IMG/VR virus record: IMGVR_UViG_3300044591_000896
Location: 32,001-96,000 of that record
From: a virus
DNA length: 64,000 nt
Strand: one strand, 5' to 3'
Shown here: one piece after another, positions 2,377-60,637 of the stretch
Position numbering within the stretch: the first letter of the stretch is position 1
How the letters are laid out: every line of letters begins with the position of its first letter
Translations under genes and position numbers: made by a program
The notes under the pieces: generated by a model
Seen by the model: only the letters and a program-made list of their open reading frames with translations
The model's database searches: none
What the model was told of the DNA's origin: nothing

Positions 2377-3263
2377 TTTTCTTCCTCTTCCTTAATGATC
2401 ATGTCGTTAATTACGCCCTCTGGCACACGACCTTCTTTTACTGCATTTTCTTGGTTTCTACGTGCATTAGACTTAATGTCTGCTGTAGTCAAGCTCTCTT
2501 TAAATCCAGGTGGTAGCTTAGACTCATCGTCAACTCCAGCGTATGGATCTTCTAGTAAAGGGTGGGCAACGCCATCCTTCCATTGTGTTTTTAATTGATA
2601 TTGATGAATTCTTTCTTTTAGAATCATCCTTTCCATTTCTTGCAATTCTGCTTCTGAGTACCATGCATCTGCGTAATCCCAAAAAATAACAATAGTGTAT
2701 CTAGTACCACTTGTTATTTCTGTAACGCTATGAATGTTTTCTACTCCTCCTGGGAAGGATACAAATGAGCCAGCTTCTGGGACTACTTCTAATCCATGAT
2801 CTCTAAACTTTAAAACACCACCAGTGTAATCTGGTTGTGAGTTTAGATAAATGCCAGCGTATTGCTTATTGTCGCTCCAGCCCATGTCATTACCTTCTAG
2901 ATCTGAGCTGTCTGAGTGATCATTTGCGTATGCACCTAGCTCCCATTTCTGGGCATGCATACTGTTAATTTTCATTGGTCTTCCAGCAGCATCTGAAACA
3001 TACTGAATCATTCTTTCACGAAGATTAGCCATGTACTCTTCAGTTATTGTTGTTCCATGCTCCTTAGTAAATGGAGAAACAACATGCATTCCATATGATC
3101 CATAAAAGCAGATAAATCTCCACTCTTCTTCGTTAGCATTGAAGAATTTAATTAGCTCATCGCACTCTTCCTTAGAAAGAAAGTTTTCGTATGACCAAAT
3201 TCCTGTTCCTCCGCCACCTAAAAGCTTACCGCCTAGTTGACTAACTACCTTTGTATCTGACAT
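2373..3263 (-). CDS. 2OG-Fe(II) oxygenase, prolyl-4-hydroxylase-like
   Basis: ENFLSKEEC, HSD, IYLN...YTGGVLKF, HSVTEITSGTRYT motifs; AAGGAG RBS. Confidence 0.88.
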   Translation of the reverse strand: MSDTKVVSQLGGKLLGGGGTGIWSYENFLSKEECDELIKFFNANEEEWRFICFYGSYGMHVVSPFTKEHGTTITEEYMANLRERMIQYVSDAAGRPMKINSMHAQKWELGAYANDHSDSSDLEGNDMGWSDNKQYAGIYLNSQPDYTGGVLKFRDHGLEVVPEAGSFVSFPGGVENIHSVTEITSGTRYTIVIFWDYADAWYSEAELQEMERMILKERIHQYQLKTQWKDGVAHPLLEDPYAGVDDESKLPPGFKESLTTADIKSNARRNQENAVKEGRVPEGVINDMIIKEEEEK

Positions 3264-3281: not shown

Positions 3282-3371
3282 TTATGCAATAGATGAATCT
3301 ATTATTAAATCTACGGCATCGTCTAAAGAATTTGAGTGTTCTTTAGAGCAATTACCACATTCTTTACACAT
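3282..3371 (-). CDS. 29-aa Cys-rich micropeptide
   Basis: Manual translation MCKECGNCSKEHSNSLDDAVDLIIDSSIA; fills an intergenic gap. Confidence 0.55.
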   Translation of the reverse strand: MCKECGNCSKEHSNSLDDAVDLIIDSSIA

Positions 3372-3373
3372 TG

Positions 3374-3577
3374 TTAAACTTTTTTACGTCCTGTTTTCTT
3401 TGGTGGCTTTGGAACATTGCTGGTTTCTCTACGAATACCATGTCTGTTTACATCCACTTTCATTCCCTGTCTAGGGTGTTTTTTTGTAGCTTCTCTACTT
3501 GTAACAGCACCAGAAGCCCCAGTGTTTGGTGGTGGGGTATTTCCAGTACCATCATTTTTTTTAAAACTATCAGACAT
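3374..3577 (-). CDS. Hypothetical small basic protein
   Basis: ORF track; GGAGAGG upstream; stop/start coupling. Confidence 0.65.
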   Translation of the reverse strand: MSDSFKKNDGTGNTPPPNTGASGAVTSREATKKHPRQGMKVDVNRHGIRRETSNVPKPPKKTGRKKV

Positions 3578-3762
3578 TAATCAATGTCCTCTCCGTTTGA
3601 TCCTTTTGACTCAGAATTTTCATGAGCCAAGCTTTCTTCTGATTCTGATCCAAACATTGATGGTACAGAAACTAATCCAGTAGCTCCCACATCATATACA
3701 TTTTGGTTTGGCATTGCTACGCCCATAAAATCTTGGCTACTGCATCCACATAAAGCGCACAT
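3577..3762 (-). CDS. Hypothetical peptide with N-terminal CxxCGC motif
   Basis: MCALCGC start and acidic tail; tightly packed with neighbours. Confidence 0.65.
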   Translation of the reverse strand: MCALCGCSSQDFMGVAMPNQNVYDVGATGLVSVPSMFGSESEESLAHENSESKGSNGEDID

Positions 3763-48882: not shown

Positions 48883-49358
48883 TATACTTCCTCCAGCGTC
48901 ATTGATATTGTCCAGAAAGAATGTAATCCACGCTTTTGTAAGACTGCGGAAAATTCTGTAAACGATACTGTATATACTTCTCCTGTATTGACATTGTCTT
49001 CTGCGGCACCAGACTTTGCAAAATTTAATAGTATTCTAAATGTGCCCTTGCCCTCTTCGCTTGCATAAAATCTTCTTAGATCTTCTGCCCCAAGGTTTCC
49101 GTCTGCCGTATGTGTTCTTGTAGTTGGTAGCATATTCCAAGACATGCTAAATGTTTTTTTATCAGCAATAAAAAATTTTCTGAGGGTTCCGTTAGCCATT
49201 CTTTGAACTTGCTGGATTCTATTTGAGCCTACAGTTATTTCTGATCTATTGTGGTCAGATATTTTTAGCCAAGTTAAAGTGGTGCCTGGTACAGTGGCAA
49301 GAACATCCTTGCCCTCTATTTGTAGCCCTACGCCTTTAGGTAATTTTGTATAACCCAT
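48882..49358 (-). CDS. Distal tail (Dit-like) protein
   Basis: Directly after the TMP; RMANGTLR...KKTFSMSW...SMTLEEV. Confidence 0.7.
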   Translation of the reverse strand: MGYTKLPKGVGLQIEGKDVLATVPGTTLTWLKISDHNRSEITVGSNRIQQVQRMANGTLRKFFIADKKTFSMSWNMLPTTRTHTADGNLGAEDLRRFYASEEGKGTFRILLNFAKSGAAEDNVNTGEVYTVSFTEFSAVLQKRGLHSFWTISMTLEEV

Positions 49359-52300
49359 TATGCTCTAACCTCCAATCCACTTCCTAGTGATCTACTTTCT
49401 CCCATAGATTTAACTGATATCTTGCTCATTGTCTTCATAGACTCAACTGTTTTTCTTGTAACCATATCAGATAGTGCATTTATGTCACCATCAAATCCAT
49501 TAATATTATTTGTAATGTTATATACGCCTCCACCCATTGTAGCATTATTAGCATTAGGATTAAAGGGGTTCATGTTAGCAGGAACTACTGCTTCATTCTT
49601 ATGAAGCATCGCAAGCATATCTGCTGGGACATTATTAATTCCAGTTTCAAATTTAGGAATGTTGAATTTTCCTCCAGCCATTCCTCCTTCTGCAAAATGC
49701 CCAGCCTTTAAGAATGGCAAAACCTTACCCAATCTTTCTTTTTGATCAGCAGCTCTCGTAACAATTTCTGTTAGTGTTTTTTCTAATTCTGATGATATTT
49801 TAGTAAATCCCACTTTGCTTAAGTTCAGGGAATCAAAAAATCCTAGATCTCTTCCATCTAATATCTTTTTAAATCCAGATACTACTTTTTGAGGAGCTAA
49901 AGATGCTACAACTGGGTGGGACACAGAATTTGTATTTCTTCCACCTTCATGAACTATTGTGTCAATAAGGTATTTAAATCCTTTTGGACCTAGCTTGGTA
50001 AAAGCTAGCCTTAAATTCTCTCCTTGCAAGAAGCTATCTCTTGCTCTACCAAGTGAGCTAAATGCTTGACCAGGTATTCTTTCTCCTGCCAACATCAGTC
50101 TTGCAGTTTCCATTCCGTGAGTTTTAGCTAAAAACGATTCTAGAGCTGCATAGGCTCTTTTGCTTTGAGACCAAATTGATTTCTGTCCGCCACGTAAATC
50201 TAAAGTTTTTCTTCCAGTAAGTTTTTTGAAAAACATTTCATATATGTTTCCAGCTTCTTCGCTAAACACATTAACCGTATTTTTAGTTTTTGAATATGAT
50301 GAAGACATTCCTTTTGAAGCTGTGGTAAACAAATCAAAGTCAAAAAGGTTTCCGAACATGCTGTGCTTAGCAGCAAACATGTCATCTACTGCATTTCCTA
50401 AAACACCAGGTACTGATCTATCTAAAAGTGTTTCTGGAAGTATGCCTCCATGATAAAAAGGACGCATTGATAGCTCTTTAAGTGTTTCAAACATTTCTGG
50501 TCCTGAGCTTGGATCAACTGCTGAAGGTGACCAGCTTCCTTCTCTTCCACCCATTTCTAATATTTTTCTAGCTTTCATTGTTCCATATGGGGTGTATCTG
50601 TATAAGAAATTTGATATAGCTTGCTTTGGATTAAATGAAGATTTTGCTGGCAATATAAATTCTTTAAAGAATTTAAATGAATTCTTTTTAGCATCAATGC
50701 CAGAAGTTATTTTTGACTTTACCTTGCTTCCAATTTTAGCAATAGGATTTAAAGTTGTCGCTTTAGTTAAATTAGATAGTAGCCCAAAAAGTTCACCAAA
50801 GGCTTCCTGAGGATTTGTCTTACCAACATTGCTTAGGTCTGCCCAATCATCCCAAGCCTTTGCTCCTCCAGGAGCACCAGTACGAGATGGTAGAATACGA
50901 GGACGATTTGTAATATCGTCAAAAAAGCTTTTGCCTGTTCTTCTAACATAATCGGCTGTATTAGTAAATACAGATGGAACCCCCTTTGGACTATAAGGTC
51001 TAAAGCCAGCAATTTTAGGTATTTTATACAACGCCTCTTTGCCTACTTTTGTTGCGCCAACTGTTTTCCATAACACAGACCTTAGAGTATTTAATATGCC
51101 TTTAGGCGTTTGTTGTACGGCTCTTAGTGCTGCTGATCCCAACATCTTTGCAGATGGTGCAGCAACATCTAGTGGGTACTTTGATATAGATTTTGCTGCT
51201 TTGGTTTTGCCTACAAGGAAGTTGAGGGGGAATAACGCAGCATTTGCATAGTCACCCTTATTTGGTTTTCCAAAGAATTCGCTTTCTTTTCCTCCTCGAA
51301 AAATTTTATTTCCTGTTTGCATTAATCCTTTTATACCTAATGCGTCAAGCCAAGGTACTGAGAATCCCCTAAACAGTCCATCTCCAACTGCTGGTCCATA
51401 AGAATAAGGAGAGTTGTTGGATGAACTTTTATTTTTAGATTGGCTTTCAGTATAAACTCCCTTATCAATATATCTAGCATTAAGCTGATCAAGAGTCATT
51501 CCCTTTGTATCTATTACACTGATACCAAATCCACCACTCAACTTATCATAAACATAATGTTTTTTTCCATCAAGCTTTGTCCATTTAGGCGCTGACATCA
51601 CATTTGTTGAGTCGTGCTTATGACCTACTGGACCACCGTCATGGAACCCTTTTATCCTGCCTAGTGGATGATTTTTGACTCCAGTATAGAATGGAGCAAA
51701 TTGTCCAGCAGTTTCATTGCCAATCATGTACTTGGTTCCAATGTATCCGTCTTTCATAGCTGCTTGGACTGCTGGATGATTAAATTTTACTCCATACATA
51801 CCTTCTGTAAGACCATACTTTTTTGCCATATCTGTAGAGCTAGCAAACCCTTTACTTTTTAATATTGTCATTATGGCTTTAACATCTAGCTTTGTCTTAT
51901 ATGAGTTACTACCGTATCTTGGATTTCCAGCTTGATACTTAGGGCTTGATGAAAAGTGTGTAAAGTTTCCTAAAGTTTGTTCTTTTTGAGCCTGGTATTC
52001 GAGTGGATGTAAAAGCTCATCAGCTAGGTTTGGATTTGGGGAATTATGGACTCCCTGCTTCATAAGCTTAAGTGCTTCTAGTTTATTTCTAGTAGATCTG
52101 ATGGCTCTGGTTGGCCTAATAAATGGAATTATAGATGCGTAGTCCATAGCTCCAGCGTTGCCTTGTGCAATTCTTCCAGCTGTGTTGTACATTGAAATTT
52201 CTTTTAATGCCTCTAAAGCAGTAGCGTTCTTTTCTGACTGGCTTAAAGATGTCTTGTATTCTGGTGCACGGTAATCAAGTTTTTTTGCTCCATGGTTTTG

Positions 52301-55300
52301 CATTCCAGTAACATAAGCACTTCCTGCATTACTAAACCAATTTAATGGATTAAATCTTGACAGCCAGCCACCTTCTGCAAACCCAGGAATCATTCCGCCT
52401 TTATTTAAATATCCTGAGTTTATTGGTGAGGGTGACCCTAATCCAACTGGGCCACCACCTGCAAGCTTTTGAGCATTTAGTCCATCAAAGAAACTAACTC
52501 CATATTGCTTTACAGCTTTTTCTTTAATTACATACTCACCATTTGAAAGCCAAGCTGGAATAGAATCAGATGTTCCAGTTCCTGGACCCTTTACATTTCC
52601 ACCCCACTCAAAATTCTTAACTGGTCCTCCTGTAGCATAGGATCTAAATCCAACATTAGGAATATTGTATCCCCAATATCCAACTACTTTTCCTCCCTTT
52701 GTTACAGAACCATTGTGCTCATATTTTAATCCGTCTTGAACAAGAGGAGTTTTTACTCCTTTATTGTAAAGTGCTAGATTTATGTCTTGCACTCCGTTAA
52801 GCGCACCACGATTTACTTTGCTATTTGGATATATATAAGCTTCTCCAGACATAGGCTTTTCTGGGTTCTCAAAGTACTTTGCTCTTCCTTTAGCTCCTTT
52901 GCCAACAGATTTTCCATCTGCTGTAAAGTATTCCATTTTATTATAATCATTAGGATTTTCTGGGTCTTTTTTAATTTCTCCACGAAGCTTGCTTAAAGGT
53001 ATAGTTCTTGTTCCATTAACCTCATCTAATCCAGTTAATGTTTTAACATACAAACCAAAGTCTTCAACGTGAGTGCCAAATTTTTCAAAATAAGTTTTAG
53101 CATATTCTACTGTTGAATTTGCTGGGCCACCAGGATCATTTGTTAATGATTTAAGATACGCTACCCAGTCTTGTTTACCAGGCTGTACTATAGGCTGGCC
53201 TCCTGGCGTTACTATTGTTGATCCCTTTGATGTTGGAACTCCGCTTGTTACGGTTTTAGCAGCTTTTGCACCATCTGATCCAAGCGCTGCTAAGGCAGCT
53301 ACATCTGAGCGAAGTGCCTCAGCAAGTAAAGCAATTGTTCCTTCGTCTGTTGTAATTGCTGCTTTAGATAAAGTTGTTGCAATGCTCTGCTGCAATGCTT
53401 GTACTGACGCATATTCTTTTTGCTTAGCGTTAGCTATTTCCTGTAACTTGTTTGCTCGCTCTTGAAGCTTAATAAGTCTCTCTTGAACACCAGCTTTTTG
53501 AGCCTCAAGTTTTTTAACTTCTGCATCTCTCTTATCTTGAATTGCATTTATTGATAGTGTTTTTTGTCTTTCGTTTGTTAAGCTTTGTATATTAAGCTGG
53601 GATTGTGCTGCACGAGACATATCGCCAGACAATAATGCTTGCTGGTAGTTTAGTTGCTCTTTTTGAACCTCTGTTAAATAGTCTTGCTTTTCTGCTTGAT
53701 CTTCAATGGCACGTATTCTTGCATCTGCTTCTTCATTGATTTTTTCTATCTTTTTATCAAGAGCTTTTATTTCTGCATCTGCATTCTTTTGAGCATTCTT
53801 TGTTGCATCATCTGATGCCTTTTTTGCATCATCGTATGCTTTCTTTGCAGCTGCTCCGTATTCTGCAATTGCATCAATTGGGTTATTCATTAAATTAGCA
53901 TTTGTTGTCATCTCTGTTGCTGCTTGAGATATAGCGTTTACAACCTGTAGTAGTCCTTGAGCCTCTTCTCCACTTATATCAGAAAGGTCTGCTGTGACTC
54001 CATTTGTATATAACTGTATTTTTGCCCAAGCATCAACCATGCTATCAGTTGAATTTAATATGTCTTTATATAGTGGGTTTTCTTGTATAAGTGTATTTAA
54101 TATATTGTCGCCAATATCTTGTTGATTAGATTTGTTGGCATTCATGTGGGCTATAGTGTCATTTAAAGCTTCTACTTGTGACTTTGCTTTTCCGCTAGCA
54201 TCTTTTACCCCTACTAAGCTTTGGTAATAAAGCTGTATTGCATCTAATCCACCGCTAAATGATGCTGCAATTTCTTTTTTATCAACATCGGAAGCATTCA
54301 TTGACTTTACAAAAGTATCTATTGCTACCTTTGCTGCTGAGGCTCTATCGACTATCTTTAAAAATTCTGTTGATGATACAGCCTCTGTAGCCTGTGAAGC
54401 TTTATTTGAAATAGATATAATGCTGTAAATTTCTCTTGCTGCATCCTGTGCTGATTTTCCTGCTGCAACTAGCTGAACCTTTAGTGCTGTTGCTGCTTTT
54501 GTAACATCATTTTTATCAAGGTCATTAAACATAGACACAATATCGCCTTGTGTCTCTTTGGCTTTCTTTTGTAATGCATTAAGTTCTTTTACGGACATAT
54601 TAATTCCGCCGCCAATTGCAGTAGATCCCGCTGCCTTTACCTTAGTTAATTGACTTTGTGCTTGTGCTGCATCTGTTGCCTTTTTTATTTTATCAGTTAA
54701 ACTTACGTATGCAATTCCAAGTTGTTTTGCTTGCTTTTCATTTACATCAAAAGCTTCTTGAGAGGCAAGTCTTGCCTTTCTTGCATTCTCCCACGCTCCA
54801 TAAGATACTGTTGCAAGTGTTGTAAGTGCTACTACTGCTACCTTACCCCAACCAGGAATTGCCATTCCAACTAATCTTAGTTTGGCTAAGCTTTGTGCAA
54901 ATTTACTAACGCTCTTAGTTGCTACTGCGGTTTCTGCGGCATCGTCTACAACACTACCTGCTGCTTTAGCAGCCTTTGCAGCCTTTGCAGTTTTTACACC
55001 CTTGTAAATTGATCCAGCAGTCATTACTGCAAATATTCCATTTAGAATAAGGTTTGATTTTTCGCTGGCGATTCCCAACTTCTCTAAAGCTTTTGGCAAT
55101 AACATGAATGCAGCTAATGGCAAAGCTTGCTGTGCTACAATGCTTGCAACTGGACCTAGTGCTCCATAATTATACTTTCCAGTTCTAATCATTCCGCCTA
55201 ATGCATGGTTAGGAACAATACCTCCACTGTTCATAGGAACAAATAGCTCTGGCCCCTTTTCTCCAACTATGTAAGGTGTGCCACCAGATACAGGTCCGCC

Positions 55301-58300
55301 CTTTTCTCTGCCCTCTAAGCCAAATATTAATTTCTTTAGCTCTTCTGTTAATGGAGTATCTTTTCTAGATTCCCAATTTGTGTATCTTCTCTTAAGAATA
55401 TCTCTATCTATTGCAGATAATACTCTTCTTCCTTCTGGTGCGGAAATTGTAGAAGACGCAGCTGATCTAATGACTGAGTCCATAATGTCTGGCTCTAGTG
55501 CTTTTAATAATTGTCCTTGTGCATTTTTAGCATAGCCATATGGCATTTCTTTTGCAAGTGCTTCTGCAAACTTGTCATAAAGAATTCTTTGTGTTCTCTT
55601 TGTTAATCCGCTAGAAGCAAATAGCTTTTCTGCCATTCCTATTTCTAGTGATGTTACTCCCCATCCGCCAGTTGTATTCTTGCCAAACCCTGCACCAATT
55701 CTACGCATAGCAAGAGATTTAATAACATTGATTAATCCACCGCCATTAAATCCATTAGCATCAGATTTAAATGCCATATCACTTAGGCTTACAGCGTGGC
55801 CTTTTTGTCTTGCTCTTAATGCTGCAGCTTCTTCTAATTTAGCAAGCGCTGCTGGTGTTAATGATTTTGGAGCTGTTGGTTTGACTGCTGAATGTATGCC
55901 ATGAAACTCTTTCCAGTTTACATGCCTTGCATCTTCAAGTCTTTTTATCATTGCAGCATAAACTTCTTCTTCTCTTGGAGTTAGACCTTTAAAGCCAGCA
56001 ATTGTTTCTTTTAGTCTAGGAAGGACTTCATCAATTTCATTAAGCATCGATTGCTGATATTGCTGAGGGGTCATTCCTCTTGGAATGTCTACTGTTGATT
56101 CTGCAAAAAATCTCTTTGCTCCGCCCTTTACGCCAAGTAAATTAATTCTTGCTTGTTCTGCAACTGATGGCATATCGTCTGCATATGATCTTAAACCAGA
56201 AGCTGTTTTAAATACACCCATAGTTCCGCCGTCTGCAACAAAACTTCCTCCAATGTTGCCAGGTGATAAGTCTTTATCTCCTCTTAATGCTGATGCAAGT
56301 AACTGCTGGAAGTACTCCTGCTCTGACATTTCTTTTGGTAAGCTTGCAAATCTTGGATCATAAGGTGATTCAAGAACAAGAAGCTTTCTTTTACCTGCTG
56401 GATCTGTTGGGTCTATCATTACCCTTATTTCCTGCTGAGGAGGTGTTAATCTATGTGCGCCTTGGTGTATTGCATTATATCTTTGCTCAGCAAGTGCAGC
56501 AGTTTCATCAAGGACTGGCTTAACAAATACTCTTGTTCCATCTGGCTTTGTGTATACTCCGCCCACTCCTTCAACTGGGAAGCTGTGTCCTTTTGTATCT
56601 TCTTCTTTCTTTCCAAAGTTAGTTGGTTCTTCTTTTGCAAAACGACTCTTGTTAACTGCTTCTGTCGTCTGCTCCATAACCTCTCTACGTTTTCTTTGCT
56701 CTTGAACCTGCTTAATTGATTTAGGCATTCCAAGGAATAATCTTCCATAGTTAGCTTTTCTCTTTTTAATGATTCCGCCCATTGCAAAGCCATCAAGCAT
56801 CATATGAGCAAATGCTCCATCTTCACCATTAATCTTTAGTTCTTTAGGATTATATGTTTCATAAGAGCCCATAAAGTTTGTACCAAACTCTTCATTTTTT
56901 GTTATTAAAGTATCAAGATCAGATGTTCTATATGGACTTATTGCTGTTGCACCCTGAAATCCAGAGGAGTGGTTTCCTGGATCTTTGAACCCTCTTCTCT
57001 GCCCAGGTACATTTAAAGAATCAATATATCTTTTTCTTAGCCCTAGCTGATCTGCTATTTTAAGGTACTCTGCGTGTTGAGCTTGTGCAAATAGTCTTTC
57101 TCCAATAAGCGAGTCTCCATGTGATGCAAGATTTGATACGATACCGTCTCTTGCCTCTAGCACAAGTCTATCAGCCAACTCGTCATCTATTTTATTTACT
57201 TTTAAAAATCTTCTTAGTGCTGGTAGTGCCTCTGAAGGGGGAAGGAACATTATGTCATCTATTATTTCTTGTGGCTTAGCTGTCCCCGCATTTATCTTTG
57301 AATTTGTTGTTTTTCTAGTATTCAGTCCCCAGTTTCCAACAAAGAAGTATCCATTTTTATTTCCAAGAACTCCTCTTCTTGGTGCAGCAGCTCCAAATAC
57401 GCCTTCAACATAATCATGAGCATCATCTGCGTCAGTTCTATGCTCTCTTCCAAGCCTTATTTGTGGCGAAAGGTTTGCTAAATCATCTGCTGACTTTGCT
57501 TTCTTTCTTTTAAACAAACTCTTTAATGCATCAAATCTTCCATAGTTGTGCTTGCCAGAAACAATTGGTCCGCCTAAGATTCCGCCTGCATTTCTAAATT
57601 GAATTCTTTGTCCGTTATTTGCTGCCTCTAGTATAGGCAACATCTCTTGTGTTTGTTCTGGTGTAAATACTGTCTCATATGGAGTCAGCATTGCATCAAT
57701 CATTCCGCCACGGTTATATGGCTTACTCTTTTTTGCATATTCCACTAGCTGTGGATTATTTCTTGTTGCATCTTGATTTAATACAAAACCACCAACTGGT
57801 ATTTTTGCCATTGTGTTGTCATAGTTTACACTCTTGTCACCAGGTACAACTGGGCCATCTTCTAATGTGTATACATATCCACCATCATTAAAGCCTCTAA
57901 GTGGACCTCTCTTTGGAAGAATAATTCTTGGCTTAGTTGTTTCTATGCTGTATCCGCCGCCAGAAGTTCTAACACCTAATCCTTCTGCAACCTTATCGAC
58001 AAGAGCTGCTGTCTCTGGCTTATGGAACATTTCTTTCATGTTGGACTTGCCAGTTACTGGATCAACCACTGGCTGGCTAGTAAATGGTACTGTAGTTAGA
58101 TTTATTCCTCTTCCCATACCAGCGGCAACCTGTGCAGCTGTTTCTGCCATCATAACTTCAATGGTTGCATTTAATGAAATAATTTTTGCTCTTGCTTGAT
58201 CTACAGTGATTACACCTTGCTGTAGCTGTCTTACAATCATAGCTCCTTCATCTGCAGCCAATTGTGTGAGCTGTTGCATCTGTGGAAGCATTGCTTGGTA

Positions 58301-60637
58301 TACTGAAGATAACTCATGTGTAACTGTGCCAGTTGCTGCTACTTCGGTCTTTAATAATGAAAGCTCTGCTTGTGACTGTGTAGCAATTGCTGCTGTCATA
58401 GCATGCCATTTAGCAGCTTCTGCAGCTACGATTCCCGTAGAAACTCCACTTATAGATGTTACGCCAGGAACTCTTGGAAGATCCTGATCCATATACATCT
58501 GTGGGTTGTTGCTTACTCTAACATTTACTGGACCTGGGTTTGGAACAACGCCAAATATGGTTCCTGGCTGCTGTATAGCTGCAGGTATGGTGTGTGCAAA
58601 TTGTCTGCTATAAGGAGCCCCTATAAACTTGCTATCTTTATCTGCCATTCTTTCTGCATTTGCTGCAACGCCTGTTGGAGACAATACTGTTGCTCCACCC
58701 ATTGTACTTATACTTGAGCTTGTTGCAACTGCTGAATTTAATGCGCTTGCCTTCAATCTATCAAATGACGCTGCAAGATTATTAACTGCTGTCTCTAATG
58801 CTATTGCAGCTTGTGCATCACTAAAGAATGATTTTTCTACAACCTTACCAGCTTCTGCTGCTGCCATCATTTCAGGTGTTAATAATTTAAATCCTGAGCC
58901 ACCCTTAAATAATTGCTTTAGATGGAATACTCCCTTGATAATATATCCAAGGAAGTTTCCAAGCACACCAGTAAGCATGATAAGTGGTCCTGCAAATGCT
59001 GTTAGTCCACCAAGGAATGTCAGTAATGACTTGATTGGTCCTGGTAGATTTTCTACAAACTTAATTATTCCGCTGATTGTTTTTAATACAAATGTGCTTA
59101 TCTTTAAGAACTGATCACCGACGCCTGCAAGTTCTGCCTTAATTGTTTCAAGTGCTCTTTTGTATTGTCCAGATGCAGACTCTGTCATAGCCTTTAATTC
59201 TCGGTCTGCTATACTTGCTAGCTCTTCTGTGCTTGCTTTCATCAAATCTAATACTTGTAAAGTTTGTGAGCCCTCTTTTCCAAGGTTATTAAATAAAGCT
59301 CCCATACGAGCAAACTGGAATTTTCCAAAAAGTTGCTCAATTGCCTGAGCTTTTTGTAACGGATCTAGCTTATCTAATGATGCTTGTAGTGCTAATATTG
59401 TTGCAGTTACATCTCCAGCATTACTCTTTACAATTGATCCAAGATCAATTCCAAATCCCATAAACATTTCTTTTGCAACTTTAGTTGGGTTAATAAGTGA
59501 TGCAAGAGATGACTTAATGGCATTAGCACCTTCTGATGCATTTACTCCGCCTTCTTTCATTGCAGTTAAATAAAGAGCAAGATCTTGAACGTTTCCACCA
59601 AGAGATTCAATTACTGGTCCTGCTTTTGGAATTGCTTCAACTAAATCCGCAAGAGATGTTGAGGTCTGGTTTTCAACTGCGTTAAGGAAGTTAATTGATT
59701 GTGCTAACTCATCATTGCTTTGTTTAAATGCATTTTGAATAGCAAGAGTTGCTTTCATTGCATCTTGTCTATCTACTTCACCAAGGATAGAAAGTCTTGT
59801 TGTTTCTTGCGTTGATACAAGCAGGTCATTTCCTTGCTTGCCAGTTGCTGCAATATCCGCTGCTAATGCGATTGTTTCTTTATATGATGCACCATAGATA
59901 GACGCTAATTCTTTTGCTGTCTCCTCGACATCTTTTCTAACTTGCTTTAGTTCTGCAGAAGATGTTTCTGCTAAACCACCGTAAACCTTTGTAAGTCTAA
60001 CTAGCTGCTGGTCTGCTTCTAGGAATGCTTTTTGTGCTGCCGCACCAAATGCCATCATTGGAACTGTTAATCCAACTGTTAACTGGCGTCCTGCCCACTG
60101 TGTATTTTTACCCCAGTTGATAAGCTGGTTGGATCCATCAAGCATCACCTTGTTAAGAATTGATGCCTCTTGTCTTAATAAAGCAGTTCTATTTTTTAAA
60201 AGATCTAGTCCATTAGCTACGTGGACATTGTATTGCATTTGCCCCTGGGCATTTCTTCCCAGGGGTTGCAATACAGCTTGTTCCATTAATACTTGCTGCT
60301 TAGCAAGATCTTTAATTAATGTACTTGTTTTTCTTGTGTGTCCTTGCCAGACTCCAAAGTACTCGCCAAGTTTCATTCGGCCAGTATCTAGCCTCTTTCC
60401 AAACTTTTGTACATCAGATTCAAGTGTTACAAAGTGTGAAGAAAATTGTCCAGTTGCTCGCATTGTTTCGGCAAATGAACGATTCATTCTGCCTACTTCA
60501 TTAGATAGGTTTCTATCTAATCCAATGGTTGTAGCTTGAAGTTTAACTAACTCGGCGGTTACGGCTCTTAACTGCGCTGTTAAACTTGAAAAGTTTGCCG
60601 TCGCAGTTATGTTCGTATTAATATTTTGTTCAGCCAA
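49358..60637 (-). CDS. Giant tape measure protein (3759 aa) with embedded kinase-like and ADP-ribosyltransferase-like domains
   Basis: Follows the tail chaperones; N-terminal TP901-type TMP core (GRQLTVGLTVP...GVNASEGANAIKS...EQLFGK); TM segments; repeated xxGG motifs. TTG start with GGAG. Confidence 0.93.
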   Translation of the reverse strand: MAEQNINTNITATANFSSLTAQLRAVTAELVKLQATTIGLDRNLSNEVGRMNRSFAETMRATGQFSSHFVTLESDVQKFGKRLDTGRMKLGEYFGVWQGHTRKTSTLIKDLAKQQVLMEQAVLQPLGRNAQGQMQYNVHVANGLDLLKNRTALLRQEASILNKVMLDGSNQLINWGKNTQWAGRQLTVGLTVPMMAFGAAAQKAFLEADQQLVRLTKVYGGLAETSSAELKQVRKDVEETAKELASIYGASYKETIALAADIAATGKQGNDLLVSTQETTRLSILGEVDRQDAMKATLAIQNAFKQSNDELAQSINFLNAVENQTSTSLADLVEAIPKAGPVIESLGGNVQDLALYLTAMKEGGVNASEGANAIKSSLASLINPTKVAKEMFMGFGIDLGSIVKSNAGDVTATILALQASLDKLDPLQKAQAIEQLFGKFQFARMGALFNNLGKEGSQTLQVLDLMKASTEELASIADRELKAMTESASGQYKRALETIKAELAGVGDQFLKISTFVLKTISGIIKFVENLPGPIKSLLTFLGGLTAFAGPLIMLTGVLGNFLGYIIKGVFHLKQLFKGGSGFKLLTPEMMAAAEAGKVVEKSFFSDAQAAIALETAVNNLAASFDRLKASALNSAVATSSSISTMGGATVLSPTGVAANAERMADKDSKFIGAPYSRQFAHTIPAAIQQPGTIFGVVPNPGPVNVRVSNNPQMYMDQDLPRVPGVTSISGVSTGIVAAEAAKWHAMTAAIATQSQAELSLLKTEVAATGTVTHELSSVYQAMLPQMQQLTQLAADEGAMIVRQLQQGVITVDQARAKIISLNATIEVMMAETAAQVAAGMGRGINLTTVPFTSQPVVDPVTGKSNMKEMFHKPETAALVDKVAEGLGVRTSGGGYSIETTKPRIILPKRGPLRGFNDGGYVYTLEDGPVVPGDKSVNYDNTMAKIPVGGFVLNQDATRNNPQLVEYAKKSKPYNRGGMIDAMLTPYETVFTPEQTQEMLPILEAANNGQRIQFRNAGGILGGPIVSGKHNYGRFDALKSLFKRKKAKSADDLANLSPQIRLGREHRTDADDAHDYVEGVFGAAAPRRGVLGNKNGYFFVGNWGLNTRKTTNSKINAGTAKPQEIIDDIMFLPPSEALPALRRFLKVNKIDDELADRLVLEARDGIVSNLASHGDSLIGERLFAQAQHAEYLKIADQLGLRKRYIDSLNVPGQRRGFKDPGNHSSGFQGATAISPYRTSDLDTLITKNEEFGTNFMGSYETYNPKELKINGEDGAFAHMMLDGFAMGGIIKKRKANYGRLFLGMPKSIKQVQEQRKRREVMEQTTEAVNKSRFAKEEPTNFGKKEEDTKGHSFPVEGVGGVYTKPDGTRVFVKPVLDETAALAEQRYNAIHQGAHRLTPPQQEIRVMIDPTDPAGKRKLLVLESPYDPRFASLPKEMSEQEYFQQLLASALRGDKDLSPGNIGGSFVADGGTMGVFKTASGLRSYADDMPSVAEQARINLLGVKGGAKRFFAESTVDIPRGMTPQQYQQSMLNEIDEVLPRLKETIAGFKGLTPREEEVYAAMIKRLEDARHVNWKEFHGIHSAVKPTAPKSLTPAALAKLEEAAALRARQKGHAVSLSDMAFKSDANGFNGGGLINVIKSLAMRRIGAGFGKNTTGGWGVTSLEIGMAEKLFASSGLTKRTQRILYDKFAEALAKEMPYGYAKNAQGQLLKALEPDIMDSVIRSAASSTISAPEGRRVLSAIDRDILKRRYTNWESRKDTPLTEELKKLIFGLEGREKGGPVSGGTPYIVGEKGPELFVPMNSGGIVPNHALGGMIRTGKYNYGALGPVASIVAQQALPLAAFMLLPKALEKLGIASEKSNLILNGIFAVMTAGSIYKGVKTAKAAKAAKAAGSVVDDAAETAVATKSVSKFAQSLAKLRLVGMAIPGWGKVAVVALTTLATVSYGAWENARKARLASQEAFDVNEKQAKQLGIAYVSLTDKIKKATDAAQAQSQLTKVKAAGSTAIGGGINMSVKELNALQKKAKETQGDIVSMFNDLDKNDVTKAATALKVQLVAAGKSAQDAAREIYSIISISNKASQATEAVSSTEFLKIVDRASAAKVAIDTFVKSMNASDVDKKEIAASFSGGLDAIQLYYQSLVGVKDASGKAKSQVEALNDTIAHMNANKSNQQDIGDNILNTLIQENPLYKDILNSTDSMVDAWAKIQLYTNGVTADLSDISGEEAQGLLQVVNAISQAATEMTTNANLMNNPIDAIAEYGAAAKKAYDDAKKASDDATKNAQKNADAEIKALDKKIEKINEEADARIRAIEDQAEKQDYLTEVQKEQLNYQQALLSGDMSRAAQSQLNIQSLTNERQKTLSINAIQDKRDAEVKKLEAQKAGVQERLIKLQERANKLQEIANAKQKEYASVQALQQSIATTLSKAAITTDEGTIALLAEALRSDVAALAALGSDGAKAAKTVTSGVPTSKGSTIVTPGGQPIVQPGKQDWVAYLKSLTNDPGGPANSTVEYAKTYFEKFGTHVEDFGLYVKTLTGLDEVNGTRTIPLSKLRGEIKKDPENPNDYNKMEYFTADGKSVGKGAKGRAKYFENPEKPMSGEAYIYPNSKVNRGALNGVQDINLALYNKGVKTPLVQDGLKYEHNGSVTKGGKVVGYWGYNIPNVGFRSYATGGPVKNFEWGGNVKGPGTGTSDSIPAWLSNGEYVIKEKAVKQYGVSFFDGLNAQKLAGGGPVGLGSPSPINSGYLNKGGMIPGFAEGGWLSRFNPLNWFSNAGSAYVTGMQNHGAKKLDYRAPEYKTSLSQSEKNATALEALKEISMYNTAGRIAQGNAGAMDYASIIPFIRPTRAIRSTRNKLEALKLMKQGVHNSPNPNLADELLHPLEYQAQKEQTLGNFTHFSSSPKYQAGNPRYGSNSYKTKLDVKAIMTILKSKGFASSTDMAKKYGLTEGMYGVKFNHPAVQAAMKDGYIGTKYMIGNETAGQFAPFYTGVKNHPLGRIKGFHDGGPVGHKHDSTNVMSAPKWTKLDGKKHYVYDKLSGGFGISVIDTKGMTLDQLNARYIDKGVYTESQSKNKSSSNNSPYSYGPAVGDGLFRGFSVPWLDALGIKGLMQTGNKIFRGGKESEFFGKPNKGDYANAALFPLNFLVGKTKAAKSISKYPLDVAAPSAKMLGSAALRAVQQTPKGILNTLRSVLWKTVGATKVGKEALYKIPKIAGFRPYSPKGVPSVFTNTADYVRRTGKSFFDDITNRPRILPSRTGAPGGAKAWDDWADLSNVGKTNPQEAFGELFGLLSNLTKATTLNPIAKIGSKVKSKITSGIDAKKNSFKFFKEFILPAKSSFNPKQAISNFLYRYTPYGTMKARKILEMGGREGSWSPSAVDPSSGPEMFETLKELSMRPFYHGGILPETLLDRSVPGVLGNAVDDMFAAKHSMFGNLFDFDLFTTASKGMSSSYSKTKNTVNVFSEEAGNIYEMFFKKLTGRKTLDLRGGQKSIWSQSKRAYAALESFLAKTHGMETARLMLAGERIPGQAFSSLGRARDSFLQGENLRLAFTKLGPKGFKYLIDTIVHEGGRNTNSVSHPVVASLAPQKVVSGFKKILDGRDLGFFDSLNLSKVGFTKISSELEKTLTEIVTRAADQKERLGKVLPFLKAGHFAEGGMAGGKFNIPKFETGINNVPADMLAMLHKNEAVVPANMNPFNPNANNATMGGGVYNITNNINGFDGDINALSDMVTRKTVESMKTMSKISVKSMGESRSLGSGLEVRA

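Follow-up and report, generated by a model that had tools for sequence, protein, structure and literature searches.

Does the giant tape measure protein (TMP) of an uncultured phage carry an enzyme-like domain of the ADP-ribosyltransferase (ART) superfamily close to its C-terminus, and could such a domain be delivered into the host by the phage tail? This question is raised by a 64,000-nucleotide stretch of DNA (hereafter the window), bases 32001–96000 of the 115,479-bp virus record IMGVR_UViG_3300044591_000896, which has direct terminal repeats and is rated 100% complete. An earlier note, made from the sequence alone, had marked six peptides at positions 49880–50465 of the window as an ART-like cargo near the C-terminus of the TMP. 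According to our analysis, residues (aa) ~3330–3640 of this protein are best read as a divergent domain with a predicted ART fold. It appears to stand on the side of the superfamily characterized by a His, an aromatic residue and an acid (H-Y-[EDQ]), and to come closest to ART-PolyVal/HYD2, domains found in the polyvalent proteins of phages. We refer to it as the cassette domain.

Predicted fold of the cassette domain

All six peptides were recovered in order in a single minus-strand frame, at TMP aa 3394–3585; the plus strand of the same interval is full of stop codons. The motif residues are invariant across an alignment of 17 sequences that share 23–86% identity with the window, so that the pattern exceeds chance. 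The motifs lie inside the interval first proposed for the domain, but the folded unit is larger. It was modelled with AlphaFold2 as aa 3330–3640 using a 17-row alignment, and the model has a mean pLDDT of 80.9 and a pTM of 0.83. In this model FYHGG forms strand 1, LFTT lies on a strand at model residues 107–110 that is followed by a helix to Y119, and further strands are found at residues 135–141 and 149–151 (TLD). A helical insertion (residues 159–216) separates them from the last three strands, the first two of which contain TIVHEG and HPVVAS (Table 1) and the third of which spans residues 257–264.

The structural neighbours of the model are ART proteins almost without exception. VIA-align, which was run independently of Foldseek against 48,161 PDB representatives, returned named members of the ART superfamily in 32 of its 33 top rows, the exception being an unannotated chain of cyanophage A4 (9k3a_B, rank 7). 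The best row was ParT (6d0h_A; Z 6.9, root-mean-square deviation 4.0, 134 residues aligned). Among the others were MbcT (Z 6.4), diphtheria toxin (1dtp; Z 6.1 over 152 residues), NatT, tankyrases 1 and 2, exotoxin A, cholix, the RhsP2 toxin, PARP1-4/10/13/15, Arr (rifampin ART), the 2',3',5'-P-A/ADPR complex and an anti-CRISPR chain (6kyf). The weak PDB list produced by Foldseek was headed by the same pre-ejectosome chain B of cyanophage A4 (E 0.012) and contained many ARTs of the diphtheria toxin type; when the 579 best Foldseek chains were re-scored, 38 of the 39 resulting rows were named ARTs and the A4 chain was again the exception. By our estimate, ARTs make up well under 1% of PDB chains. 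Among the predicted viral structures of BFVD, the best match was a protein annotated as "large polyvalent protein associated domain" (E 4.2e-4, probability 0.93), next came "PolyVal ADP-Ribosyltransferase" (E 1.8e-3, probability 0.98) and then several "ART-PolyVal-like domain-containing" proteins.

We consider it very probable, as far as a predicted model can tell, that the cassette domain has an ART fold, and we base this on the uniform composition of the lists rather than on any single score. The earlier note had counted a predicted fold unlike that of ARTs among the findings that would speak against its reading; the fold came out ART-like in three independent structure searches. It is very improbable that the domain bears no relation to ARTs, with chance motifs and a generic alpha/beta model concealing an unrelated role such as action on the cell wall. 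One could point to the fact that no sequence-based method yielded a significant match, that Z values below 8 are common according to the note supplied with VIA-align and may reflect common structural arrangements, and that known enzyme inserts of TMPs are muralytic (PMC10038345). Nevertheless, named ART folds fill both PDB lists and the head of the viral list nearly entirely, no other enzyme fold appears in them, the conserved residues occupy the canonical positions of strands 1 and 2, and no muralytic family was matched in Pfam or PHROG.

Table 1. Positions of the TMP gene and of the features discussed in the text
Feature	TMP residues (aa)	Window position	Strand	Remarks
TMP gene		49358..60637	-	11,280-nt open reading frame, 3,759 sense codons and a stop codon; start codon listed as TTG
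Upstream joint FHDGGPVGHKH	2998-3009	51611..51646	-	Candidate left edge of the exchangeable block
Cassette domain (modelled fold)	3330-3640	49718..50650	-	N-terminal helices, ART-like core, C-terminal helix
Predicted ART-fold core	~3391-3605 (model residues 62-276)	49823..50467	-	Structural alignments to ParT, diphtheria toxin, tankyrase, PARP1-4
FYHGG, strand 1	3394-3398	50444-50458	-	DSSP strand at model residues 65-69
DLFTTASKG	3435-3443	50309-50335	-	Peptide match in TMP translation
Strand 2 and helix, DLFTTASKGMSSSY		50294..50335	-	F3437, T3439 and Y3448 invariant; aromatic-x10-Tyr spacing
GNIYEM	3463-3468		-	Peptide match in TMP translation
KTLDL	3477-3481		-	Peptide match in TMP translation
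Helical insertion after strand 4 (TLD.R.G), ahead of the last three strands		50003..50185	-	DSSP helices, model residues 159-191 and 213-216
Strand IDTIVHEGG	3558-3566	49940-49966	-	DSSP strand at model residues 231-236
Strand HPVVASLAPQKV	3574-3585	49883-49918	-	Begins with invariant H3574; DSSP strand at model residues 245-250
Downstream joint FAEGGMAGG	3648-3656	49670..49696	-	Right border of the cassette
Conserved C-terminal TMP module (~110 residues)	~3650-3759	49361..49690	-	43-93% identity in every complete TMP compared

Possible kinship with ART-PolyVal and the presumed catalytic site

ART-PolyVal, the Tox-ART-HYD2 clade found in polyvalent proteins of phages and conjugative elements, is defined by an H-Y-D configuration, to which strands 1, 2 and 5 contribute the His, the Tyr and the Asp, respectively, and its prototype is the virion RNA polymerase (vRNAP) of Roseovarius Plymouth podovirus 1 (RPP1; CBX87992.1) (Iyer et al., 2017, PMC5512222). 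Six verified members, namely RPP1 vRNAP, its homologue from Dinoroseobacter phage R7L and four IMG/VR relatives, were assembled into an alignment (A5); all six match the Pfam family PF18760, RPP1 vRNAP doing so at aa 1023–1096. Stand-alone ART-PolyVal proteins were sought with the RPP1 domain and none was found. The cassette domain was represented by a domain-only alignment of four sequences (A2), which was preferred to a mixed alignment (A1; 1,095 states) dominated by TMP flanks.

Comparison of A2 with A5 in hhalign revealed a weak similarity restricted to the N-terminal half (P 7.7e-4, probability 25%, 54 columns), in which DLFTT...Y is paired with GLFFT...LARDY and KTLDL with KPMEI. With the core of the 17-sequence alignment the values were P 2.7e-3 and probability 11%, and YHGG fell on YHGT at a lower maximum accuracy (MAC) threshold; removal of the helical insertion brought no better hhalign match to ART-PolyVal. 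Distant homology to ART-PolyVal is plausible for strands 1–4, and the remainder of the domain can be likened to it through the structural model. The ART-PolyVal pattern proposed in the earlier note has therefore to be taken in part: the motif order fits true members for strands 1–4 and the nearest viral neighbours are ART-PolyVal proteins, but the domain does not score with PF18760, the profile similarity is weak and the catalytic acid is not secure. The cassette domain is not a formal member of PF18760.

Both kinds of domain appear to share the ART fold, ART-PolyVal being the best viral structural neighbour, and the co-linear elements [FY]HG[GT], h-F-x-T...Y, strands 3–4 and D-[GST]-I. Both also reside as optional modules of variable architectures in giant virion proteins thought to enter the host at infection. 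In contrast to ART-PolyVal, the cassette domain is ~80 residues larger, owing to the helices inserted between its fourth and fifth strands and to additional ones on its flanks, and has its own additional invariant residues, N3430, K3452-N3453, D3480-x-R3482, E3519, H3563 and H3574. Its carrier is a tail TMP, whereas ART-PolyVal domains occur in head-packaged or MuF-linked proteins or in proteins of conjugative elements; the term "tape measure" does not occur in the study that described them (PMC5512222).

The first two elements of the presumed active site can be placed in the model. H3396-G-G of strand 1 fits the H-G-[ST] motif by which H-Y-[EDQ] ARTs bind nicotinamide adenine dinucleotide (NAD), with Gly instead of Ser/Thr at the third position, and the starting points of the PARP and diphtheria toxin alignments would put the catalytic His at most one residue from H3396. 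Strand 2 carries F3437-T-T, and the invariant Y3448 follows eleven residues on; diphtheria toxin and PARP1 have the same 11-residue spacing between the aromatic residue and Tyr.

Two correspondences can be drawn for the third catalytic residue. Judged by motif order, I-D3559-T-I, with D3559 at the front edge of its strand, fits the Y-D-G-[IA] strand of ART-PolyVal and V-D-A-L of gp27 from cyanophage A4. Judged by the aligned ranges (diphtheria toxin 9–190 on model residues 54–296; PARP1 854–1011 on 58–276; PARP2, PARP3 and tankyrase similar) and by the positions that we take the catalytic residues to occupy within diphtheria toxin and the PARPs, the catalytic Glu would fall at model residue ~245–253, on the strand that starts with the invariant H3574. 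If so, the counterpart of the D3559 strand is the one that precedes this Glu strand. The strand HPVVASLAPQKV thus probably occupies the structural position that the strand with the catalytic Glu has in diphtheria toxin and PARP, and of the two candidates H3574 is the better conserved in the 17-sequence alignment. The third slot is ambiguous between D3559 (Asp in 14 of 17 sequences) and H3574.

A number of results weigh against the reading as a divergent H-Y-[EDQ] ART close to ART-PolyVal. In Foldseek searches of the PDB there was no match at E ≤ 1e-3, and the structural Z is at most 6.9. Pfam searches of the whole TMP, of the isolated domain (E up to 10) and of its flanks recognized PhageMin_Tail at the N-terminus alone, PHROGs gave no family for the cassette domain, and a hidden Markov model (HMM) search of PDB sequences gave no relative of it. 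With PF18760 (gathering threshold 31.2 bits; the positive control, the RPP1 vRNAP domain, scores 36.5–43.2 bits) no match was obtained in the whole 115-kb genome at E up to 1, and the C-terminal half of the domain gave no hhalign alignment to ART-PolyVal (P 0.21). As to the catalytic residues, strand 2 carries Phe instead of Tyr, the candidate acid D3559 is replaced in three of the 17 sequences (by Asn in two and by Lys in one), and the classical Glu slot of the model appears to hold His, for which we know of no precedent in any characterized ART. The Phe is not disqualifying, since three of the six true ART-PolyVal members aligned have Phe at the same position. It should be mentioned that the PDB sequence search also brought up phosphoglycerate kinase (E 0.9), which was rejected as a chance match.

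With diphtheria toxin, exotoxin A, cholix and the PARPs the cassette domain appears to share the fold (Z 5–5.7 for PARPs and tankyrase) and retains the strand-1 His-Gly and the aromatic-x10-Tyr element. Its three C-terminal strands probably also have a similar spacing to those of diphtheria toxin, as far as the aligned ranges and DSSP assignments indicate. It differs from these proteins in sequence (~10% identity, no sequence-level match), in the apparent replacement of the catalytic Glu by His3574, in having no translocation or receptor domains and in its context within a phage tail protein.

The equally high scores of some toxin–antitoxin toxins bring up a different chemistry. The cassette domain could use NAD+ without being a protein ART, either as a glycohydrolase/phosphorylase of the RES/MbcT/NatT type or as a DarT- or Arr-like modifier of nucleic acids or small molecules. 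We regard this as quite improbable. It is true that ParT, MbcT and NatT, all RES-like toxins, have the best structural scores, that Arr and the 2',3',5'-P-A/ADPR complex are among the structural rows and that a His in the Glu slot could mean a different reaction. However, the differences in Z among the top rows are below 1, so that the RES-type toxins are tied with diphtheria toxin and PARP. RES-domain toxins have a conserved Arg-Glu-Ser signature and a cognate antitoxin, whereas strand 1 of the cassette domain carries His-Gly-Gly, not Arg, and the domain sits inside a TMP with no antitoxin context. The viral neighbours and the motif order favour ART-PolyVal, and draining NAD+ from a cell that the phage is going to use would seem counter-productive.

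Another group of ARTs, the R-S-E clade, is marked by an Arg in its first strand, a Ser-Thr-Ser motif in its second and Glu-x-Glu before strand 5, and includes T4 Alt (PMC5512222). Membership in this Alt/VIP2 clade was rejected: the strand-1 His of the cassette domain is invariant, and neither an STS nor an ExE motif is conserved. T4 Alt and the MuF-VIP2 fusions of actinobacteriophages are likewise virion-carried ARTs, delivered with DNA (PMC5512222, PMC7302621), but they are head-packaged enzymes of the R-S-E type, in contrast to the strand-1 His and the tail location found here. The parallel that the earlier note had drawn with Alt is thus valid as a functional one, and it does not extend to the clade of Alt or to its transport in the head (PMC5512222).

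Cassette exchange and sequence conservation

The product of the gene that carries the cassette is a phage TMP. It contains the core domain (Pfam PhageMin_Tail, PF10145, at aa 239–438, E 8e-25; nine PHROG tape-measure families at aa 160–850, best E 4.6e-124) and a conserved C-terminus, and its gene is flanked by tail-module genes, with two minor tail proteins encoded downstream.

The mobility of the domain is best seen in two relatives, L002 and L003, whose TMPs are 99% identical over aa 1–3245. Directly after the motif [FL]HKGGAVGH[RK]H (TMP aa 3225–3265 region) they part: L002 continues with 507 residues that include the ART-like domain and L003 with 779 unrelated residues. Beyond these inserts the two proteins share the C-terminal ~145 residues at 74% identity. 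The window TMP has the homologous joint, FHDGGPVGHKH, at aa 2998. Such an exchange between near-identical TMPs supports the label "cargo" given to the domain in the earlier note. In total, the domain was present on only five of ~17 contigs with a complete TMP C-terminus (L001/L006, L002, L013 and, in a divergent form, L015 and L030), and most complete giant TMPs compared had nothing similar to aa 3340–3640 of the window protein. In the C-terminal block of the L001/L006 TMP, similarity to the window begins at aa 2998; in giant TMPs that have no such domain it resumes at aa 3640–3658, mostly at 3648–3651. The C-terminal module is kept with or without the cassette.

The TMP of the window contains 23 Phi-x-x-G-G sites, and joints of this kind flank the ART cassette. 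The cassette is optional and exchangeable, and it is located between short Phi-x-x-G-G joints directly upstream of the conserved C-terminal ~110 residues. The joints may serve as cleavage sites, or they may be no more than hot spots of recombination. In 10 other loci the inserts that occupy this position of the TMP gave no Pfam match. The ~320 residues that lead from the FHDGG joint to the ART-like domain (TMP aa 3010–3329, window 50651–51610, minus strand) are rich in Lys, Gly and Ser, form part of the same exchangeable block and match no family.

The sequence family of the cassette domain is small and, in the databases searched, is seen only in giant TMPs of uncultured phages. Word-indexed protein searches gave seven relatives with 37–100% identity, all within proteins of 791–4,001 residues, and when 1.84 billion cluster representatives were searched exhaustively in HMMER with the A2 profile, only 16 proteins were obtained at E ≤ 1e-3, the long members of which are giant TMPs. 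The short members (133–371 aa) were considered as stand-alone forms of the domain and rejected as gene fragments, because all of them run into the C-terminal motifs of the TMP. No match to the domain was found in 50,697 phage records by megablast and tblastn, and a scan with the family alignment of 185,579 prokaryote species, each represented by a single genome, revealed no relative. In the ESM Atlas the domain hit unnamed clusters and one DUF932 cluster with low recognition, a result that is uninformative.

The residues invariant in all 17 aligned sequences are H3396, G3397, G3398, N3430, F3437, T3439, Y3448, K3452, N3453, D3480, R3482, G3484, E3519 (part of a GER motif in the helical insertion), H3563, G3565, G3566 and H3574, while R3407, D3435, V3576 and P3582 are almost invariant. 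The ratio of nonsynonymous to synonymous substitution rates (dN/dS) was calculated from a codon alignment of the window TMP with its relative on L006. The cassette domain showed 89% amino acid identity and dN/dS 0.10, against 56% and 0.32 for the entire TMP, 0.20 for the N-terminal core and 0.23 for the C-terminal module. Synonymous sites outside the domain are close to saturation, and therefore only the ranking of these ratios is trustworthy. The cassette domain is the most constrained part of the TMP and is under purifying selection.

These data bear on another explanation, which accepts the ART fold and denies the enzyme: the domain could help to build or pack the ejection conduit, or bind protein or DNA within it, for instance as part of a tip plug or channel or as a dock for a host factor. 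The closest PDB match in Foldseek, A4 gp27, forms a structural layer of the pre-ejectosome and contacts DNA (PMC12002296). The classical catalytic Glu slot is apparently substituted and D3559 is not invariant, and the pseudo-ART domains of TASOR and PARP13 are among the structural neighbours. We nevertheless consider a non-enzymatic module unlikely. The 17 invariant positions cluster on the elements of the NAD site (H-G-G, F..T, Y) together with polar N, K, N, D, R, E, H and H, which fits an active site better, and the dN/dS of the domain is the lowest in the TMP. Moreover, near-identical TMPs exist that do not have the cassette; it is thus dispensable for TMP function, which argues against a core structural role. 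Finally, gp27 itself retains LYHGT, GTYFS and VDALT and may be an enzyme too.

The resemblance to gp27 (aa 1419–1644; 9k3a chain B; PMC12002296) deserves a closer description. In VIA-align it scored Z 5.6, and its 170 aligned residues equal the longest alignment of that table. Like the cassette domain, it belongs to a virion protein expelled at infection, carries the three motifs mentioned and has a long stretch between motifs 4 and 5. Unlike the TMP, gp27 is a head-internal ejection protein of a podovirus, and it shows no significant sequence similarity to the window family (P 0.096). In the genome of this phage (Anabaena phage A-4L) the putative ART-like domain lies within gp27 aa 1400–1660 (L093:20290–21072, minus strand) and contains LYHGT, GTYFS..QAA and VDALT. 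Pfam does not recognize it, and ADP-ribosylation is not mentioned in the paper on the A4 structure (PMC12002296).

Further ART-like stretches were noticed in the TMPs themselves. One of them, at aa 2846–2996 of the window protein (window 51650–52102, minus strand), contains GVHNS, GNFTHFSSS and DGYIGT; L022 and L015 conserve it in their TMPs, as does P0021. This stretch has no profile link to the cassette family (P 0.31) or to ART-PolyVal (P 0.26), and its AlphaFold2 model was unusable (pLDDT 45.3). In addition, the N-terminal half of the cassette domain recurs as a second, weaker copy in two related giant TMPs, P0011 at aa 61–193 (independent E-value 1.9e-8) and P0008 at aa 1494–1589 (2.4e-7). 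These copies are more canonical in their motifs (WHGS, GFFGTSSKSEA.MYA and KDGYL), and the HMM of the window family finds them while Pfam does not.

Proposed delivery by the tail and proposed function

The TMP of phage T5, pb2, offers the nearest model for the position of the cassette. It forms a trimer in the tail tube with its last residues docked in the hub, and it is cleaved between a hydrophobic stretch and the C-terminal metallopeptidase module pb2C, which is expelled first and probably has to refold (Linares et al., 2023, PMC10038345). By analogy with pb2C and with phage 80-alpha, the C-terminal end of the TMP would sit in the hub (PMC10038345). Since the cassette adjoins the conserved C-terminal segment, it would count among the earliest protein to emerge from the tail if the T5 analogy holds. 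Both proteins have an enzyme or enzyme-like module near the C-terminus, upstream of a short segment that docks, or is predicted to dock, in the hub. They differ in that the T5 module is a peptidoglycan metallopeptidase acting in the periplasm, whereas the cassette domain has a predicted ART fold for which NAD+ would be needed, and in that cleavage at the joint is putative here.

It can be hypothesized that the TMP resides in the lumen and the tip of the tail and that its C-terminal end exits first upon receptor binding. The cassette would then refold and bind NAD+ via H3396-G-G and the F3437/Y3448 pair, the third catalytic function being provided by D3559 and/or by the invariant H3574 or H3563. 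ADP-ribose would be transferred to a host macromolecule before or during DNA entry, possibly for takeover of the cell or for counter-defence. Our data speak for the fold class, the conserved residues, purifying selection, the exchange of cassettes and the confinement to TMPs; the steps of the scheme that we infer are the binding of NAD and its use in catalysis, refolding, entry into the cytoplasm and the choice of target. A host-modifying, NAD-dependent effector is favoured because ARTs are the commonest protein-modifying domains of injected phage polyvalent proteins and because T4 Alt provides an experimental model of a virion-borne ART (PMC5512222). On balance, we lean towards the whole chain, a divergent ART-PolyVal-like effector that modifies the host in an NAD-dependent manner and is delivered by the tail.

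Delivery is where this chain meets its main physical difficulties. NAD+ is not expected in the periplasm. The T5 module pb2C is thought to act in that compartment (PMC10038345). As an ART needs NAD+ and the T5 precedent is periplasmic, either the distal TMP passes through the cytoplasmic membrane or the domain has a different role. Besides, a folded domain of ~30 kDa in three copies might not fit into the lumen of the tube and would need refolding.

In its predicted fold the cassette domain belongs to a known enzyme superfamily, of which it is a divergent, Pfam-invisible branch with an unusual carrier. Full-text literature searches revealed no description of an ART domain inside a TMP, the co-mentions of the two terms being incidental; MuF-VIP2 fusions, rather than an ART within a TMP, have been described in actinobacteriophages (PMC7302621). 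Known enzyme inserts of TMPs act on the cell wall, so an NAD-using enzyme of the toxin type at this place would, if confirmed, be a new type of TMP cargo, and an ART lineage with an unusual set of residues would be added to the superfamily. It would also mean that in some siphophage-like viruses the contents of the tail deliver host-modifying effectors ahead of the genome. Effector delivery has so far been ascribed to head-packaged proteins such as T4 Alt and polyvalent proteins of the N4 vRNAP type. The entry of the distal TMP into the cytoplasm would thereby become directly testable, and the cassette, being small, self-contained and naturally exchangeable, is a convenient object for such tests.

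A broader scheme is conceivable, although we find it unlikely. The TMP would be a modular, tail-borne injector of several effectors, including the ART cassette, a kinase-like cassette upstream and other inserts that are swapped between Phi-x-x-G-G joints, and the ART-like domain would perform an NAD chemistry new to ARTs, with an invariant His in place of Glu, on a host target before the arrival of DNA. If this were true, the distal part of a siphophage TMP would reach the cytoplasm. A kinase-like catalytic-loop motif, GDKDLSPGN followed by VADGG, is present in the translation at TMP aa ~1340–1590 (window ~55859–56629, minus strand). A peptidoglycan-binding domain of the OmpA family (PF00691) is listed by Pfam in the related giant TMPs P0005 (L006) and P0007 (L002), though not in that of the window, which suggests that TMP inserts also include envelope-directed modules.

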